A DNA stretch of 64,000 bases from a virus (Duplodnaviria > Heunggongvirae > Uroviricota > Caudoviricetes): the IMG/VR virus record IMGVR_UViG_3300021387_000091, positions 5,979 to 69,978 of that record; one strand, 5' to 3'. Made by a program: the position numbers and the translations under genes. This document shows, one piece after another, positions 5,778 through 64,000 of the stretch (position 1 is the first letter of the stretch; every line of letters starts with the position of its first letter). Below the pieces are notes generated by a model. The model did not search any database, was not told the DNA's origin, and saw only the letters and a program-made list of their open reading frames with translations.

Positions 5778-8700
5778 ATGAGTCAAGTTAAAAAATTACA
5801 AACAGGTGGTACTCCAGAAATTCCTGGCATAAAGCCTTTAAAATTTGAACCGATTCCTAAATTTGAACCAGCTAAATCAACAACCGGATCCCTTACAATC
5901 GATGGAAAAACATATGAAGCTACTCCAGAACTAATTCAAGCTTTGACATCACATCTTAGTGGTTTTGGTGAAACAGCTGCTCCTCTTGCAGGATTAACTG
6001 CCGCGTTACAAAGAGGAGAAAATGTTGTATATGATTCAATTGGAAACACAATTACTGGAATGTCTGGACAATGGACAGGAATTGATGATAAGGCTAATAC
6101 AAAAAGAAATTCTGGAACAAGTCAATGAAGAAGAAATTGGCAAGCCACATTTAATACAGATGCACATAAGTTTAGAAATGCAGTAAAACTATTATCTGGA
6201 TTTATATACAATCCTTCTTCTGAAGATACATCAAACCAAAATCTTAAGGATATATACGGCAATAATATTTGGTATAAATACGATGTTGGTGAAGATGGAA
6301 AGAAAACTTGGTTAGATAACGCTTCTGAAAATCTATCTATTGACCAAAGATTAAAAGATTGAACATCTTATTTAGGTGGGACAGATGACGATAGAAAAGG
6401 ATTTAGACTCGGAAGTCAGTACGATGATCCTAAAGTAGAAGCAATTAAAAATCTATATTCAAGATACACTCCGGAAACTTGAGATGCTTATCTCAAAGAA
6501 ATTGGAAATAGAGCAAAAACAGATACTCTTAGACCAGAAGATATTGCATTTCTTGCTAATTTTAATATTGTAAAACCTGACGAATATGCCAACCAAGGAA
6601 CAGGTAACAGGTCTAGAATAACTTCTGCAGATAGAACTAAATGAAATAATGCTGGTTTTGGAGGACTAGCGGATTTACTTGGAGACCGTGCACATTTAAA
6701 TGATGATGGATCTCTTTCTTTGAACGATGGAGAAAGTTGAGGATGAAATCTTGGCGATTTAGATGGAAGAAATATTTGGTTTAACGATGATTTCTATAAA
6801 AGTAGATATGGAGCAGATGGTTCATTTGACCCATTTAGAGGATTAACACTTTATAGAAATAGATTATATACATCTTCTAATCCTGTTTTGGCTAGAATTT
6901 TAAATTCAGAAGGTGGATTTAACTCTATGATGAAAGCTGGAAATTGAACTGGTGCAGATAATGAAATATTAACAAGATTTACAGATGCAGCAAGAGAAAA
7001 TCCTGCGTATTTGCAAAATGATAGATATTCTACATTCTTATCTAATCCAAATTATAGATTTTCCGATTTGACTGGTCTAGTTAAAACACAAGACATGAAC
7101 GAAGATGATCAAATAATCCAATACATCGATCTATCGGATGATTCTTTAGTTGGGCCATATCGTCAATATAGATATAAATATGCACTGCTTGATAATAGAG
7201 GTAATCTAAAGAAACAATTAAATTCTGAGGATTTGATTGATATTCAAAATGGTTCTTCTAGAGAAGGCGGATTAAATACATATAGAAGAATATCAGGAAA
7301 CGAAAATCAGGTATATAATAATAGATATTACGAAGATATTCTCGATAAAAGCGGAAATGCAACAGGATTTAGATTTTATCGTAGTATATCAGATCCTAAT
7401 GGAGATGTTATAATGCATATGCCAAAAATATATGCATCTGATGCTGAAGATAAAGATATCGTTCTTCCGAAAGAAGTTGCTCAAGTTTTAATGCAAAATA
7501 AGAATTGACTTCAAAATGTTGTTGGAAATGCTCAAAATAAAGAGAATTTTATGAAAATTATATCTGGACTTGTTCAAAGTTGGTGAGCTAAATCCGACAA
7601 TCTTTGGTATAGAAATGAAGCGAAAGAATTAAGAAAAATGGGATTATCCGAAGAAGAGGTTCAAAAATTCTTACAAGCATGAAATCAAGCGAAACGAGGT
7701 AATCGTATGCAACGTAGACAAGATATGCTTGTAACTGCACCACAATTTAAAGATGGTGGTGTGATACTTGAACAATCTGGAGGTAGAGCAGGTGGATCAA
7801 AATCTGCAACTGGAGTTACAGAAAAACGAGTTAATACTATAAACACTAATCCAAATAATGCTGCAACTATAGGGGACAGTAAAAACTGAACAGATGCTGA
7901 TACAAAAGATGTTGTTGCATTACTTGGTGATTTAGGTTCTCTTGGTTTAGCCTTTGTTCCTGGAGCTAATGTTGGTTCTGCAACAGTTGGTGCAGCATCA
8001 TCTACAGCGAGATTTCTTGCTGATAAAGAAAGAGGCACAAAAGGCGCTGGATTAAATTATTTAGCAAACTTAGGAATGGATGCTGCTACATTACTTCCTC
8101 TTATAGGTGGTGCAAGTAAGACGGCAAAAACAGTAAAAGCGGTTAAGAACGCACTTCCATTAATAATTAAAGCCGCATCAGTTTACGGATTAGGTTCTGC
8201 AGTAGTTAATTCTGCAAATAAAATTGCTAATGGTGAAAACTGAACAGTTCGTGATGTCTCAATGGTTGTAAACGCTCTTACAGCCGGTGTTGGATTATCA
8301 AAGCAAGGTGGTCTTGGCAAATCTAAAGTTAAAGTAAAAGAACTTGAACCTGTCACATTAAAGAGTAAAGATGGAAATATATCCTTAACTTTAAACTCTG
8401 AAGAATTAAAACAGATTAAGGATCCAGACGCATTACTTGACGCAATGTTTAATAAAGCAAAATCATCTAATACCAATCTTACAAAGGAACAATTTGGTAA
8501 ACAATTTGATGTAAATTCTTTACTTAAAACAGCAACTAAATGGAAACCTGGTTGGAGTCCTAAAAATTGGTTTAGAAAAGAGTCTGTAAAAACATTTAAT
8601 CCAAAGGTAAAATCTGCAAAGCAAAACGTTGAAGCTGAAGAAGGTTCTTTTAAAGAGTGGTGGCACGGTGTAGGTAAAAAACAGCAGAATTATAACGAAC

Positions 8701-59664: not shown

Positions 59665-60780
59665 TTAAAAACTAAATGTTATAGTTTTTTTCTCTTCTTC
59701 TCGTTTTGGAGTAGAAGAATCTTTTTGTTTTGTTTCTTGTCTTATTTTACAGGGTATATTGTTATACTCTGATTGGAATTGTGTATAATCCGTTATTTGA
59801 TCTGGAGGAGGTAATGCTAAAAACCATCCAACAGAACCTGCAAATCAAGTATTTATTACTTGATCAGCAATACCATATCGATTTTTGGAAATTATCAACG
59901 AACGATGCCATCTAGTTAATCCTTGATCTCCAAGTATTTTATAACCTCTATATGTTGCTAATTTTTCTCTAAATGGATAAAATAATTGAATAACAACATC
60001 ACTAGCATCGCCAACAGCACCAGTCTGTTTAATATCATTGAGGGTTGGTTCACTTAATTCTGCTTTACGACGATCCATAGAAGAAGCATCACGATTTTGT
60101 TGCATTAACATAAATCAAGACATATTTAATTTATTTTTTAATGTAACCATATAAGATGCAGCTGTATCTATTTCTTGTTTCAATTCTCTTCCTTCTGATG
60201 GATTCATAAGTAGACCGTGATCTATTACTCCAATTAAACGTTGATTCGGATTTTTTGCAAGATATCTTTTCTTTCCTTCAATCTCTTCAAATGTGCCAAA
60301 TCTACTTGCAAAATTTAAAGCTTCATGATATAAAGTTTTGCAATTAAGCATACTGTCTACAATGATTAAATGTTCTGAAATACCATCTATTCATTTTTTA
60401 GCAGATTTTAGATATTCTATATTATCGTCAGAAATAGGACTTTGAAATGATAAAATATCATCTAATGTTAAATAAACCCCAAATTCTTCGGCACAATATA
60501 AACTCATTAGTTTTGCAAGTAACACATTTGCAGGTAATTCAAGGCTAAAATATAAAAAATAAACTGGATATTTTTTATCAATATGTCGCAACATATGATA
60601 CATTATAAATAAAATAAGTGCAGATTTACCAACTGAACTAGCTGCTGCAATAGTATAAAACCTTGAAGGTTGAATACCACCAATTACTTTATCTAATTTA
60701 GGAATTCCAGTAGATAATCCTATATTTTCACCTCTTTTACCTTTTTCAATTTGAGCTCAAAGTAATTCAAGATCAGTCAT
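59665..60780 (-). CDS. dnaB: DnaB-like replicative helicase (371 aa; four TGA=Trp)
   Basis: STGIPKLD..IGG, AASSVGKS, YFSLE, VIDH, QQNR, DASDVV, KNRYG. Confidence 0.9.
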
Positions 60781-62411
60781 TATATAGATTCATAAACATT
60801 AAATGTACTTTCCACTTGACCTTCTTGTGGATGATCTTTAAGTTCTTTTAAATCTATTCATTTCTGACTTGCTACAAACTCTAAACATTACATTCCATAT
60901 TATTCGCAAGATAATATGCGTTCTCTTATGAACTGCTATATATCACTATATAGATTCGACTATTTCTTTATCCTGTTTAGGATACACTCCATTTCCATCA
61001 CCATTAGCTTGTGATGTACTCCCAATAGGGATAGTCTGTGAACATTTCGAATAATCAAAAAGGTTAATATATATTTTCTTTATATGCTCTATAAAAGCAT
61101 CCTTATTTATATTCATTTTCATTCTATTACAAATATCACAACAAGTTACACAATTATCTATTGTGTATCCTTTTGATGAATCCAAACGATCTATTCCATT
61201 TCTTAGGAATTTTTCATTTGTTTTATTATATTTATAATCAGACGAATATTCTTTAGGTTTACTATTACAATAAAAACAATTACCAAATATAAGATTTCCA
61301 AATTCAGAATCTGTTAAATTTCATTCAAGGCCTCTGTCTGCTGCACCTCTCATATAGGAGCTTTTTACACAGTTAAATGGTGCATCTAATGTCGGAATCT
61401 TATGATTTCCACTTTTACATACATCACATTCACATTTTGTAGCAATTATGGTTTTTAATGATTTAATAGATTCTGTTCCACATTTTAAGCATTTTACTCT
61501 ATAATATCTAGATGTTCCTTTTTCTTCTACAAATTCTAATATTTCATAAACATCTGTTTTAAATCCAACATAATTTTGAATAGTTTTATTTTTCTTACAT
61601 TGAATACAGATAGCACGATATATTTGTCTTGTTGTAAATATATATCCACAATCTAAACATTTTAAAGTAAATAAATAACTAGCTGTTCCCGAAATTCTTT
61701 CTTTAGCTATTATTTTAAAATTACCTTTTTCAGATTCGACTTTGCTGCCGATTATCAATTTTCTTCCCATAATAAAAATTTAAAAATTAAAATCATCTAT
61801 ATAATTTGTTATTACAAATATACGAAATTATTTTTAAATTTCCAAGAAATGAATTGATTTTTCCGCAATTAAAAGTGTTTATTACCTTTATATTACTATA
61901 AAGGAGGACTTCAAATTAAAATCCCAAAGTTTATGTGATTATGTTCTTTAGCCCATTTTAATATTTCCATAATCTCTTTATGAGTTTCGGGATTATGTTT
62001 TATAGTAGAACTATAATGAAAGAAAAAATCATCTAACGACATAAACTTTTTACTGATATTTCGCAATGATGCAAGTTTTCCATTTATTGGAATGAACGCA
62101 GGATATTCTTCAAAAAGTTCTTTTCCTAATTTTCCAGAACCTTTAATTCATCCCTTTAAAAAGTTTTTATTAAACTCAATATCATCGGGATTATATGATT
62201 TTGGATTATAATCTTTATGAATAATACCCTTTTCTTTTAGAGATTCAAATAATGATTTTAATCTAGATTGACCTCCATTAGAAAATCATTTTGCAAAATA
62301 TTCAGCATGTCCCTCTTCTTCTTGTGCAAGAAACGTTAAATAAACAAGAAGAAGTTCATCTGCTGTTAGATTATACGCAATCATTAAATTTAAAATAGTA
62401 TCTATTTCCAA
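60780..62411 (-). CDS. Conserved protein upstream of DnaB (possible initiator/helicase loader), spliced: exon 1 62411-61921, exon 2 60885-60780 (198 aa; TGA=Trp)
   Basis: TTG start. Exons of 491 + 106 nt give 199 codons, junction INFGI|LEFVASQK[W]. The stop overlaps the dnaB ATG (TAATG). Function is inferred from position only. Confidence 0.75.
60946..61770 (-). CDS. Intron-encoded HNH homing endonuclease (274 aa; one TGA=Trp)
   Basis: Multiple CxxC pairs; CFYC...NGIDRLDSSKGYTIDNCVTCCDICNRMK. Confidence 0.85.
61815..61846 (-). promoter_or_regulatory. Intron-internal Bacteroidota-type promoter for the HNH gene
   Basis: CTTG, 20-nt spacer, TATATTTG; same arrangement as in the ligase intron. 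Confidence 0.7.
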
Positions 62412-62491
62412 TATTGTTAAATTAAATTAAATATTAATCTAACAACAAACATTTTAAAGTATTTTATATACTGTTATAAGTTGGAATTACG

Positions 62492-63719
62492 TTAAAATCT
62501 AAATTCTATATTTGGAGAATATTCTCTCTCCCTTGTTTCAATTTGTTCTCCTGCGAGAACTTGATCTAATTGTGCTTCATTAATAGTTATCACTTTAGAT
62601 GTTTTGGAATTAGAAAATCAATTTACCTCTTGAGTTCCTTTAAGAATTAAGGTAAAAATTTCAGCAGTTTTACCTTCCTCAAATCTAAGACTTCTTCCAA
62701 GTCTCTGTGTTTTACGAATCTTAGAAGAATCTGTATGCAATATAACCTCAAGGTTTATTCCAGCTAAATCTAATCCTTGATCTGCTGCCTTACTTGTATT
62801 TAATACCCCAGCTTTATCAGAATTAAATTTTTCAATAACTTCTTGATTTTCTTTTGCTTTCTTTTGAGAGTGCATTGTATATCCAATTCCAATAGATTCT
62901 GCCATTTTAATTGTAGAAGAAAATGTTATAGCTTTACTATTAGGACGCGCTTCAAGAATTTTTCTTGCAATTTCTATTTTTTTTGGATGACTAAGAATGA
63001 AATCTTTACGAGCTTTCATTGTTCTCATAAAAGTCATAGCCATTGCAGTAACTGTTTTTACGTCCTTTTGATGTTGTTTTGCTCAAATAGCTCTTCTTAT
63101 AGGATTTGTCGCAACTTCCATTGCTGTACTAAATTCAAAATTAAAAAAAGCAAATGCACTATTAAACTTTTTATTAATTTCTTGATATTCTGTAAGATCT
63201 ACATCAAGCATTACAACATATTCCTTATGAGGAGAAACTCAACCATTTTTTTCAGCTTCTTCTATTGTAATTCTATCACAAACAGGAGCAAACTTTTCAA
63301 TAAGAATATGTCTCATATCTAATCTTTCAAGTGTTCCTGTTAAACAAAGTATAAATTGATATTGTACTTTATCAAACACTTGAATGAACGTCTCTGCTCC
63401 TGTAAGATGCACTTCGTCTACAATTAAAAGATCACAACTTCAATTCAATTTAATAACACTATTGATAATTTCAACCCTAGCATTTAGTCCAAGACCTCTT
63501 TCATCGATTTGTTCAATTCACTGATCTTTTAGAATTTGTGTTGGTACAACAACTAAAACTTGAGAACTAGGGTTTTTAGTTACAAAAGCATCAATTAGAT
63601 TTAAAGCAACTCTAGTTTTACTTTATTTAACCGAAGCCGGTGCACGCAACAATACTTGCTTTGCCACCAGCTTCTAGTCATCGTTTAAGACATAGTTTTT
63701 GTCTTGCTGTTCTGTCCAT
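62492..63719 (-). CDS. SF2 (DEAD/DEAH-like) helicase, 405 aa if a 10-nt interruption at 63620-63629 is removed; otherwise disrupted
   Basis: CTGFG|KT Walker A, VVVPT, IVDEVH, LTGT, DQGLD, QRLGRSLR; 30 + 376 codons on either side of the gap; TGA=Trp. Confidence 0.8.
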
Positions 63720-63999
63720 CCCACCAATCACTATGAGGACAATTCATACAATCAAACTCTGAACAATTATCACATGGTAATTCCCAGTCATCTTCTTTTG
63801 GATAGTCATAATAATTATAACCACTATAATCAGGTTCATATGGCCAACGATGATGTCTGTTATAAGCGTAATAATCTATTTTAATTTCATATTGCATGTT
63901 TGTTGGAATTGTTTTAATAAGTGCTTCTATGAAATTTAAACAGTTTTCTAATTCAGAAATAACAGTATATTCAGAATCAGTATGTTCTCTATAATAACC
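63685..63999 (-). CDS. C-terminal part of a protein truncated by the window edge, possibly M28/M20-like peptidase
   Basis: The frame is open to the window edge; GYYREHTDSE resembles the GYY..HT..E C-terminal metal-ligand motif; Tyr/Asp/Cys-rich tail. Confidence 0.45.
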   Translation of the reverse strand, partial: GYYREHTDSEYTVISELENCLNFIEALIKTIPTNMQYEIKIDYYAYNRHHRWPYEPDYSGYNYYDYPKEDDWELPCDNCSEFDCMNCPHSDWWDGQNSKTKTMS

Positions 64000-64000
64000 G

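Follow-up and report, generated by a model that had tools for sequence, protein, structure and literature searches.

Natural ribosomal bypassing is known essentially from the gene 60 cassette of bacteriophage T4 and its homologues, and from yeast mitochondria. Gene 60 has a coding gap of 50 nucleotides (nt) and is associated with an element of the homing endonuclease MobA (Huang et al. 1988; Manning and Atkins, bioRxiv 10.1101/2022.08.31.505936). In its homologues a stop codon or the rare codon AGG is conserved after the Gly take-off codon, and the gap has been shown to protect against MobA (bioRxiv 10.1101/2022.08.31.505936); pairing of the mRNA as it leaves the ribosome has been proposed to drive the forward movement (bioRxiv 10.1101/2024.12.09.627546). 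The mitochondrial byp elements of Magnusiomyces are 27–55 nt long and number approximately 81 per genome (cited in PMC5009743). Synthetic constructs can support short stop-hops, and a 2016 review expected shorter natural counterparts of gene 60 while knowing of none (PMC5009743). Among the crAss-like phages, frameshifts inside conserved motifs have been described in the Zeta group by Yutin et al. (2021), who suggested ‘unknown expression mechanisms’ (PMC7886860). Here we describe a helicase gene whose Walker A motif is interrupted by 10 nt. It lies in a 64,000-nt stretch of phage DNA (hereafter the window), which corresponds to positions 5979–69978 of the 176,795-bp virus record IMGVR_UViG_3300021387_000091 (G000). 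Our literature search for short hops in phage helicase P-loops found no description of one.

The gene is on the minus strand. Its first part (63630..63719) comprises 30 codons, from an ATG to the Gly of the Walker A motif, and ends in Cys-Thr-Gly-Phe-Gly; its second part (P0001; 62492..63619) comprises 375 codons and a TAA stop, and begins AAA ACT AGA (Lys-Thr-Arg). Between them stands the gap TAAATAAAGT (63620..63629), proposed to be untranslated, such that the minus strand from 63645 to 63614 reads GTGC ACC GGC TTC GGT TAAATAAAGT AAA ACT; without the gap the junction would be GGTAAAACT, the uninterrupted form. The last codon of the first part, GGT (Gly30; 63630..63632), is the proposed take-off codon, and the last triplet of the gap, AGT (63622-63620), the proposed landing codon. 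The first gap triplet is a TAA that closes the 0 frame (63629-63627), the +1 frame reads AAA TAA and is closed at 63625-63623, and the -1 frame differs from that of the second part; an exact skip of 10 nt is the sole way to restore Thr-Gly-Phe-Gly-Lys-Thr. A preliminary description of this DNA had placed the split of TGFG|KT within Walker A, had reported stops in both frames and the need for exact removal of 10 nt, and had remarked that the remainder of the gene was intact and that GT is repeated at both ends of the gap. Our rereading agrees throughout: GT closes both the GGT codon and the gap, and both parts are open only if TGA is read as Trp, as in translation with code 4, which is needed once in the first part (codon 14; 63680-63678) and five times in the second. 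From the layout and conservation of the sequence, both directly visible, we infer that the gene probably yields one continuous 405-residue XPB/Rad25-like helicase by means of a short programmed or semi-programmed ribosomal hop over the 10 nt.

Such a hop would proceed as follows. Codons 1–30 would be translated, and the ribosome would pause when UAA reached the A site, peptidyl-tRNA-Gly being paired with GGU in the P site. The tRNA would leave GGU before a release factor could act, whereupon the freed GG might pair with the CC of ACC to form an ACCG/GCUU/CGGU hairpin, which would hide the take-off codon and bias the mRNA forward. The tRNA would then re-pair 10 nt downstream on AGU, identical to GGU in its second and third bases, AAA (the Walker A Lys codon) would enter the A site, and decoding would resume to give Thr-Gly-Phe-Gly-Lys-Thr. 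The efficiency of the hop may be low.

In several respects the locus resembles T4 gene 60: the gap interrupts a conserved motif of a phage enzyme of DNA metabolism and both halves are conserved, a Gly take-off codon is followed immediately by a stop, pairing of the 5' mRNA is plausible as a forward driver, and the gap may lie where a homing endonuclease acts, a GIY-YIG insert being present at the junction in a relative. It differs from gene 60 in having a gap of 10 rather than 50 nt, without homology to a cassette and without a stem-loop inside it; in lacking a Shine-Dalgarno-like element and an attached endonuclease gene; in its non-cognate landing; and in that the gaps of its relatives grade from +1 to +10 at a single site. 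The byp elements, which ribosomes skip, are likewise short non-coding inserts in protein genes, with triplets for take-off and landing and a following codon that cannot be decoded, but they are mobile and occur many times per genome, whereas here there is one site per genome, with far shorter gaps, in a bacterial phage.

An alternative to a single chain would be two, namely a 30-residue peptide ending at the TAA and a re-initiated C-terminal protein, which would then assemble. Split genes beside homing endonucleases can work in this way, as T4 gene 39/60 does (bioRxiv 10.1101/2022.08.31.505936). At the present locus we consider it highly improbable, given that the first 57 codons of the second part contain no ATG, GTG or TTG (the first start codon in frame is the TTG at 63448) and that the second frame opens just one codon, AGT, ahead of the Lys codon; the second part is therefore not separately startable. 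The break also falls between the Gly and the Lys of a single P-loop, and there are no added tail sequences like those of the split T4 proteins. To bind phosphate, a Walker A P-loop must be one chain. The first 30 residues are themselves part of the helicase core, since the DEAD and ResIII matches of the uninterrupted relative L002 (related loci are numbered with L) begin at residue 4–5; the same 30 first codons are present in all relatives, and the uninterrupted relatives are collinear with the window helicase.

The preliminary description had listed four readings of the gap, of which programmed bypass is the one favoured here on the strength of the allelic series and of purifying selection; the other three, an assembly error, a recent inactivating slippage and the scar of a lost intron, have not stood. 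The first of these, a fault of assembly or sequencing, has in its favour the general fallibility of metagenome assemblies and nothing more, and its probability is negligible. A second public assembly (L007, whose sample may be the same or a different one) is 99.97% identical to the window over 3,366 nt and has the identical gap; L008, with 87% nucleotide identity to the window over the gene, has the 10-nt gap TAGCTAAAGC at the same place, sharing 7 of 10 bases with that of the window; and L003 and L010, at approximately 75% identity, have the 10-nt gap TAATTAAAGC, again at the same place. At least 12 distinct gap alleles occur across independent JGI, ENA and Logan data sets. Uniqueness of the insert to this genome, which had been contemplated at the outset, is contradicted by gaps at the same junction in many relatives, and for the same reason the gap exceeds chance.

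A stop inside the catalytic P-loop with both alternative frames closed, in phages of a group that possess further helicases (DnaB-like and SF1), might indicate an inactivated gene without which the phage copes. The pattern of substitution makes this very unlikely. Over the 375-codon part, the window and L008 show a synonymous divergence (pS) of 0.465 and a non-synonymous divergence (pN) of 0.040. So low a pN/pS (0.08), reached across 47% synonymous divergence between two lineages that are both gapped, disposes of a recent inactivating slippage. Over the 30-codon first part the same pair has pS 0.37 and pN 0.06, and all pairs among eight interrupted alleles fall within pN 0.06–0.23 and pS 0.27–0.78 (pN/pS approximately 0.14–0.45). 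No further stop or indel was found in the 375-codon part of any of approximately 20 interrupted alleles, the first part is conserved in frame with its ATG, and about a quarter of the related protein clusters are interrupted, complete genomes included. These comparisons place both parts of the helicase under purifying selection in gap-carrying lineages.

We read the junction in approximately 35 related loci, collected among viral and metagenome contigs and by way of related proteins. Comparison with relatives had been proposed in the preliminary description as a search for the same gap, a full intron or no gap; the loci include gapped and uninterrupted forms and one large insert. In the uninterrupted state (0), TTT GGN is followed directly by AAR (L002, L004/L020, L011, L013/L038, L015, L017 and L021). 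Two kinds of +1 allele exist, TTT C GGN (L039/L012, L036, L016/L019 and L066) and GGG T AAR (L063, L064 and L068). Longer gaps are represented by a +4 allele, GGC TAGC AAG (L062); three +5 alleles, GGG TAGGT AAG (L005/L018 and L035), GGT TAGGC AAA (L061) and GGT TAGGT AAG (L067); a +6 allele, GGT TAAGGT AAA (L022); a +7 allele placed one codon earlier, TTC TAAGGTC GGA AAA (L065); a +8 allele, GGC TAACTAGA AAA (L009 and L041); and the three +10 alleles TAAATAAAGT, TAGCTAAAGC and TAATTAAAGC (window/L007, L008 and L003/L010). In L014/L040 an insert of 1,225 nt, containing a GIY-YIG open reading frame (ORF), lies exactly between GGT and AAG. The earlier statement that no simple frameshift would rescue the gene thus holds for the window allele, which cannot use a +1 slip because TAA closes the +1 frame after one codon, but not for those relatives with plain +1 sites. 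Among the 120 closest protein clusters, approximately 113 of them classifiable, some 83 are full length (405–406 residues) and some 30 are interrupted, as judged from their N-termini; several interrupted clusters are on contigs of 130–173 kb, and two genomes with +1 alleles (G002 and G003) have terminal repeats and are rated 100% complete. A search of the viral collection by DNA pattern for further relatives gave no new contigs. One otherwise uninterrupted relative (L021:1271-1362) has A7 where others have A6, at codons 12–13, and its frame is shifted; the run may be a sequencing error in a 1.8-kb contig or another slippage site.

Several of the gaps resemble tandem duplications of local sequence, with one A-to-T change making the stop: the apparent source is GGTAAA for the +6 gap and AAACTAGA for the +8 gap. 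Gap states are scattered across the helicase tree. L005 (+5) and L017 (0) are approximately 97% identical and differ at the site (TTC GGG TA GGT versus TTT GGT), from which it follows that the gap state turns over fast relative to the gene, and the identical +5 allele occurs in two backgrounds (L005 and L035). The nearest relatives of the window also differ by part, in that its first 30 codons are closest to L009 while its second part groups with L008, which suggests recombination inside the helicase gene.

What the alleles have in common is informative as to mechanism. Every gap of 4 nt or more opens with an in-frame TAA or TAG, and the codon preceding it is GGN in all relatives gapped at Gly|Lys; in the +7 allele, TTC precedes the TAA. 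The final triplet of every gap has the same middle base as the take-off codon. A fully cognate landing triplet, GGY, marks the +5 and +6 alleles; those of +4 and +10 have AGY, the +8 allele has AGA, and in the +7 allele the landing triplet is GUC, after UUC. In the window, AGT is the first triplet past the take-off codon to have a middle G and a pyrimidine in third position. A stop in the A site, combined with a re-pairing triplet directly before the codon at which decoding would resume, is present in all gap alleles. In the +1 alleles of the first kind, UUU can slip to UUC while the A site presents, in the 0 frame, CGG, the rarest Arg codon of the window's genome (0.5 per 1000); in L066 the preceding codon is GGC, and UUU to UUC is therefore the only cognate slip available. 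In those of the second kind, UAA occupies the A site and tRNA-Gly can move from GGG to GGU, which is the layout of the RF2 gene. In layout, then, the +1 alleles are textbook shifty sites, and the features shared by the alleles are, as read from sequence, those expected of a P-site tRNA that re-pairs while decoding in the A site is slow, and not those of RNA processing.

The same features bear on the proposal that the 10 nt are spliced out, edited out or skipped by the polymerase, with the result that ribosomes would meet an uninterrupted mRNA. The Zeta-group crAss-like phages in which frame breaks were described are intron-rich (PMC7886860), and the junction is also the insertion site of the 1.2-kb element of L014. 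RNA removal is nevertheless quite unlikely: it needs no immediate stop, no look-alike landing triplet, no UUU-C slip site and no CGG; the gap sequences vary widely among alleles; 1–10 nt cannot fold into a ribozyme; and the region (window 60700-64000) gave no Rfam match.

Comparison with described recoding sites points the same way. As in the synthetic stop-hops and the +5 and +6 hops of Weiss, Dunn, Atkins and Gesteland (1987), the tRNA would leave a pre-stop codon and re-pair downstream, and the +6 relative (GGT TAA GGT) and the +5 relatives (GGG TA GGT) have exactly the stop-hop layout. Matched codons, which are found in gene 60 and in the classical stop-hops, are here confined to the +5 and +6 relatives (GGG/GGT to GGT/GGC). 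Unlike the synthetic cases, the present series is natural, conserved and under selection, and the hop proposed for the window is longer (10 nt) with a partly matched landing. The +1 relatives recall prfB (RF2) and hungry-codon sites such as that of yeast Ty1, in that GGG-UAA would slip to GGU and UUU-CGG to UUC; the window differs from prfB in that its +1 frame is closed, that no upstream Shine-Dalgarno-like stimulator is present, and that no autoregulatory logic is evident.

We considered several other contributors to a crossing. The 30 residues before the gap are conserved equally in the uninterrupted relatives, so that no gap-specific nascent-peptide signal can be read from them. The phage encodes its own tRNA-Gly(UCC), a candidate for a special hop tRNA that was discarded, this being an ordinary tRNA that is present also in the gapless genome G001. 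No ochre suppressor tRNA was found in G000; a tRNA with anticodon UUA, which would decode TAA, is encoded in G001 (G001:C1:83959-84033, minus strand), where nothing interrupts the helicase. A two-step route, in which a +1 slip would be followed by decoding of AAA and a hop of Lys-tRNA from AAA to AAA, gives the right protein for the window allele but not for the other two 10-nt alleles, and is not preferred.

In a genome of 32% GC, the codons leading up to the gap are GC-rich. The 12-mer ACC GGC TTC GGT (63630..63641, minus strand) could form a hairpin of 4 bp, ACCG and CGGU enclosing a GCUU loop, as had been proposed in the preliminary description, and is predicted to fold at -3.4 kcal/mol in isolation; no structure is predicted within the A/T-rich gap of 10 nt itself. 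The 3' arm of the hairpin is the take-off codon, and the third base of the Phe codon pairs in the stem. Each of the first eight gap alleles inspected could form a CCG/CGG stem. TTC is the Phe codon in 10 of 12 sequenced alleles whose gap is at least 4 nt long, and in none of the eight alleles without a short gap (one-sided Fisher test, approximately 4e-4, relatedness ignored), whereas TTC accounts for 21% of Phe codons across the genome and 13% within these helicase genes. Among the sequenced alleles, every one whose landing is non-cognate (+4, +7, +8 and +10) has TTC, a hint that the hairpin may matter most where landing is weak.

Why such a gap should persist may be understood from the elements that invade the gene. 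The insert of L014/L040 (L014:1776-3000) occupies its 1,225 nt exactly between the Walker A Gly and Lys codons, and its ORF (L014:1897-2880) matches GIY-YIG in Pfam with an E-value of 2.9e-10. The insert is preceded by a U and has G as its last base, like a group I intron; Rfam gave no group I match for it or for the inserts of 1.4 kb elsewhere in the gene, although a long ORF within a ribozyme can hide such a match. The suggestion of an intron was thus useful in part, the junction being the insertion site of a GIY-YIG-encoding element. As a scar the gap is not supported, since the 10 nt have no similarity to the ends of the L014 insert and, wherever the gap is placed, a preceding U and a final G cannot be had together. 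With GIY-YIG inserts at two sites and an HNH insert in the neighbouring gene, the helicase gene is evidently under attack by homing elements, which target conserved DNA. By analogy with the gene 60 gap and MobA, extra bases would destroy the target of a homing endonuclease while leaving the protein unchanged, and the gap may persist for that reason. We put at about even the chances of a more general view, namely that across this large crAss-like group the allelic +1 slips, the hops of 4, 5, 6, 8 and 10 nt and the 7-nt hop are savior indels which shield an intron or homing-endonuclease target, the hairpin offsetting an imperfect landing.

A minimal version of the same idea would have the indel block the nuclease, or turn the helicase down, with crossing at the level of error and no dedicated signal. 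Savior indels with such trace compensation are an established concept in other viruses (PMC5009743), and the non-cognate landing codon of the window allele, the weakness of its hairpin and the quick turnover of gap states between L005 and L017 would all be in keeping with it. Against it stand stimulators that are not random, comprising the immediate stop, the landing look-alike, the surplus of TTC and of GC-rich codons, and the rare CGG of the +1 allele, together with strong purifying selection over the whole gene. It is unlikely, and it departs from a programmed or semi-programmed hop in degree and not in kind.

Certain observations weigh against the programmed or semi-programmed hop and its anti-nuclease rationale. 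The landing in the window is non-cognate, GGU against AGU, with two of three positions matching. The hairpin is tiny, at 3–4 bp, and it is not essential, because the +5 alleles L061 and L067 and roughly half of the +5 clusters deduced from protein N-termini carry TTT. The scatter of gap states and the part-specific nearest relatives imply that recombination moves alleles, which weakens arguments from shared ancestry. At most interrupted loci there is no endonuclease gene beside the helicase, and, with no Rfam group I match in the L014 insert, the anti-nuclease rationale depends on a single relative and on analogy. In the E. coli constructs of Weiss et al. in 1987, moreover, such hops were reportedly inefficient.

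If the hop is real, these alleles would be the first natural short stop-hops, and would form part of the mechanisms suspected for Zeta-group crAss-like phages. They would offer a concrete candidate for unexplained frame breaks in crAss-like phages, which outnumber all other phages in the human gut, and would extend the idea that recoding hides conserved phage DNA from homing endonucleases with the protein unchanged. The relatives constitute a ready-made mutational series (0 to +10, with cognate and non-cognate landing, and with and without the hairpin) that makes rules of take-off and landing testable by reporters. For annotation, the consequence is that roughly one in four of these helicases comes out of gene callers split or truncated.

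The source genome is that of a large crAss-like phage of the gut or rumen. G000 (176.8 kb) has direct terminal repeats, is rated 100% complete and has a whole-genome GC content of 32%. ARAGORN found on it the phage's own tRNA-Trp(UCA) in addition to the tRNA-Gly(UCC); an origin in Mycoplasma or Spiroplasma, which reading TGA as Trp might suggest, is ruled out by the crAss-like phage record with its own tRNA-Trp(UCA). In Pfam the window helicase matches ResIII and Helicase_C and the uninterrupted relative L002 matches DEAD and ResIII, and among solved structures the closest to L002 are archaeal XPB/Rad25 helicases (E-value 3.5e-20). The window protein has the features of an SF2 helicase of the XPB/Rad25-like type, namely motif I, DEVH as motif II, and Helicase_C, motif I being whole only after the hop. 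The gene is present in one copy in G000, with no second, and is located in a replication block where genes for a DnaB-like protein and AAA_24 adjoin it.

Within the genome the site appears to be alone. A six-frame comparison of G000 with the complete genome G001, made in both directions, revealed no other short frame break in shared genes; the remaining matches of the comparison were inserts of intron size, antisense gene boundaries and a conserved terminator region. Neither did a scan for TTCGGN-TAR reveal another site with coding sequence on both sides. A gene finder based on ORF tiling was unreliable, favouring the antisense frame of the helicase. A genome-wide habit of gaps, like that of the mitochondrial byp elements, is accordingly ruled out, with one site per genome. 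The terminator region, outside the window at G000:C1 ~123370-123460 (minus strand), has a terminator-like hairpin, GGGTAGC-TTCG-GCTACCC, followed by a T run; it is intergenic, upstream of a gene start and common to G001, and it appeared in the comparison as a false ‘frame break’.

The remaining inserts lie farther from the junction. A second insert in the helicase gene, of approximately 1.4 kb, is found at L005:3847-5262 and at the same place in L017 and L041, near helicase residue 277–282 in the motif V region; inside it is a 377-residue ORF with a GIY-YIG-like N-terminus (L005:3948-5081), and it is not an intein, because the relation between the frames of its flanks differs between loci. In the window, the gene just downstream of the helicase, also on the minus strand, extends over 61896-62411 and continues for 33 codons at 60783-60881. 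Between these two segments it is interrupted by an insert of 1,038 nt with an HNH-like ORF (60946-61770), which is probably an intron or an endonuclease cassette. This gene is uninterrupted in G001, and in L011 and L014 a similar HNH ORF occurs at another point of it, residue ~113. The HNH-like ORF of the window is 1.9 kb from the gap, no endonuclease gene lying directly beside the gap, and no correlation was found between gap state and the HNH insert in the neighbouring gene. In a gene approximately 2 kb upstream of the helicase of L005, a full-length match to a group I intron (RF00028, 86.9 bits) is present on the plus strand at L005:748-1059.

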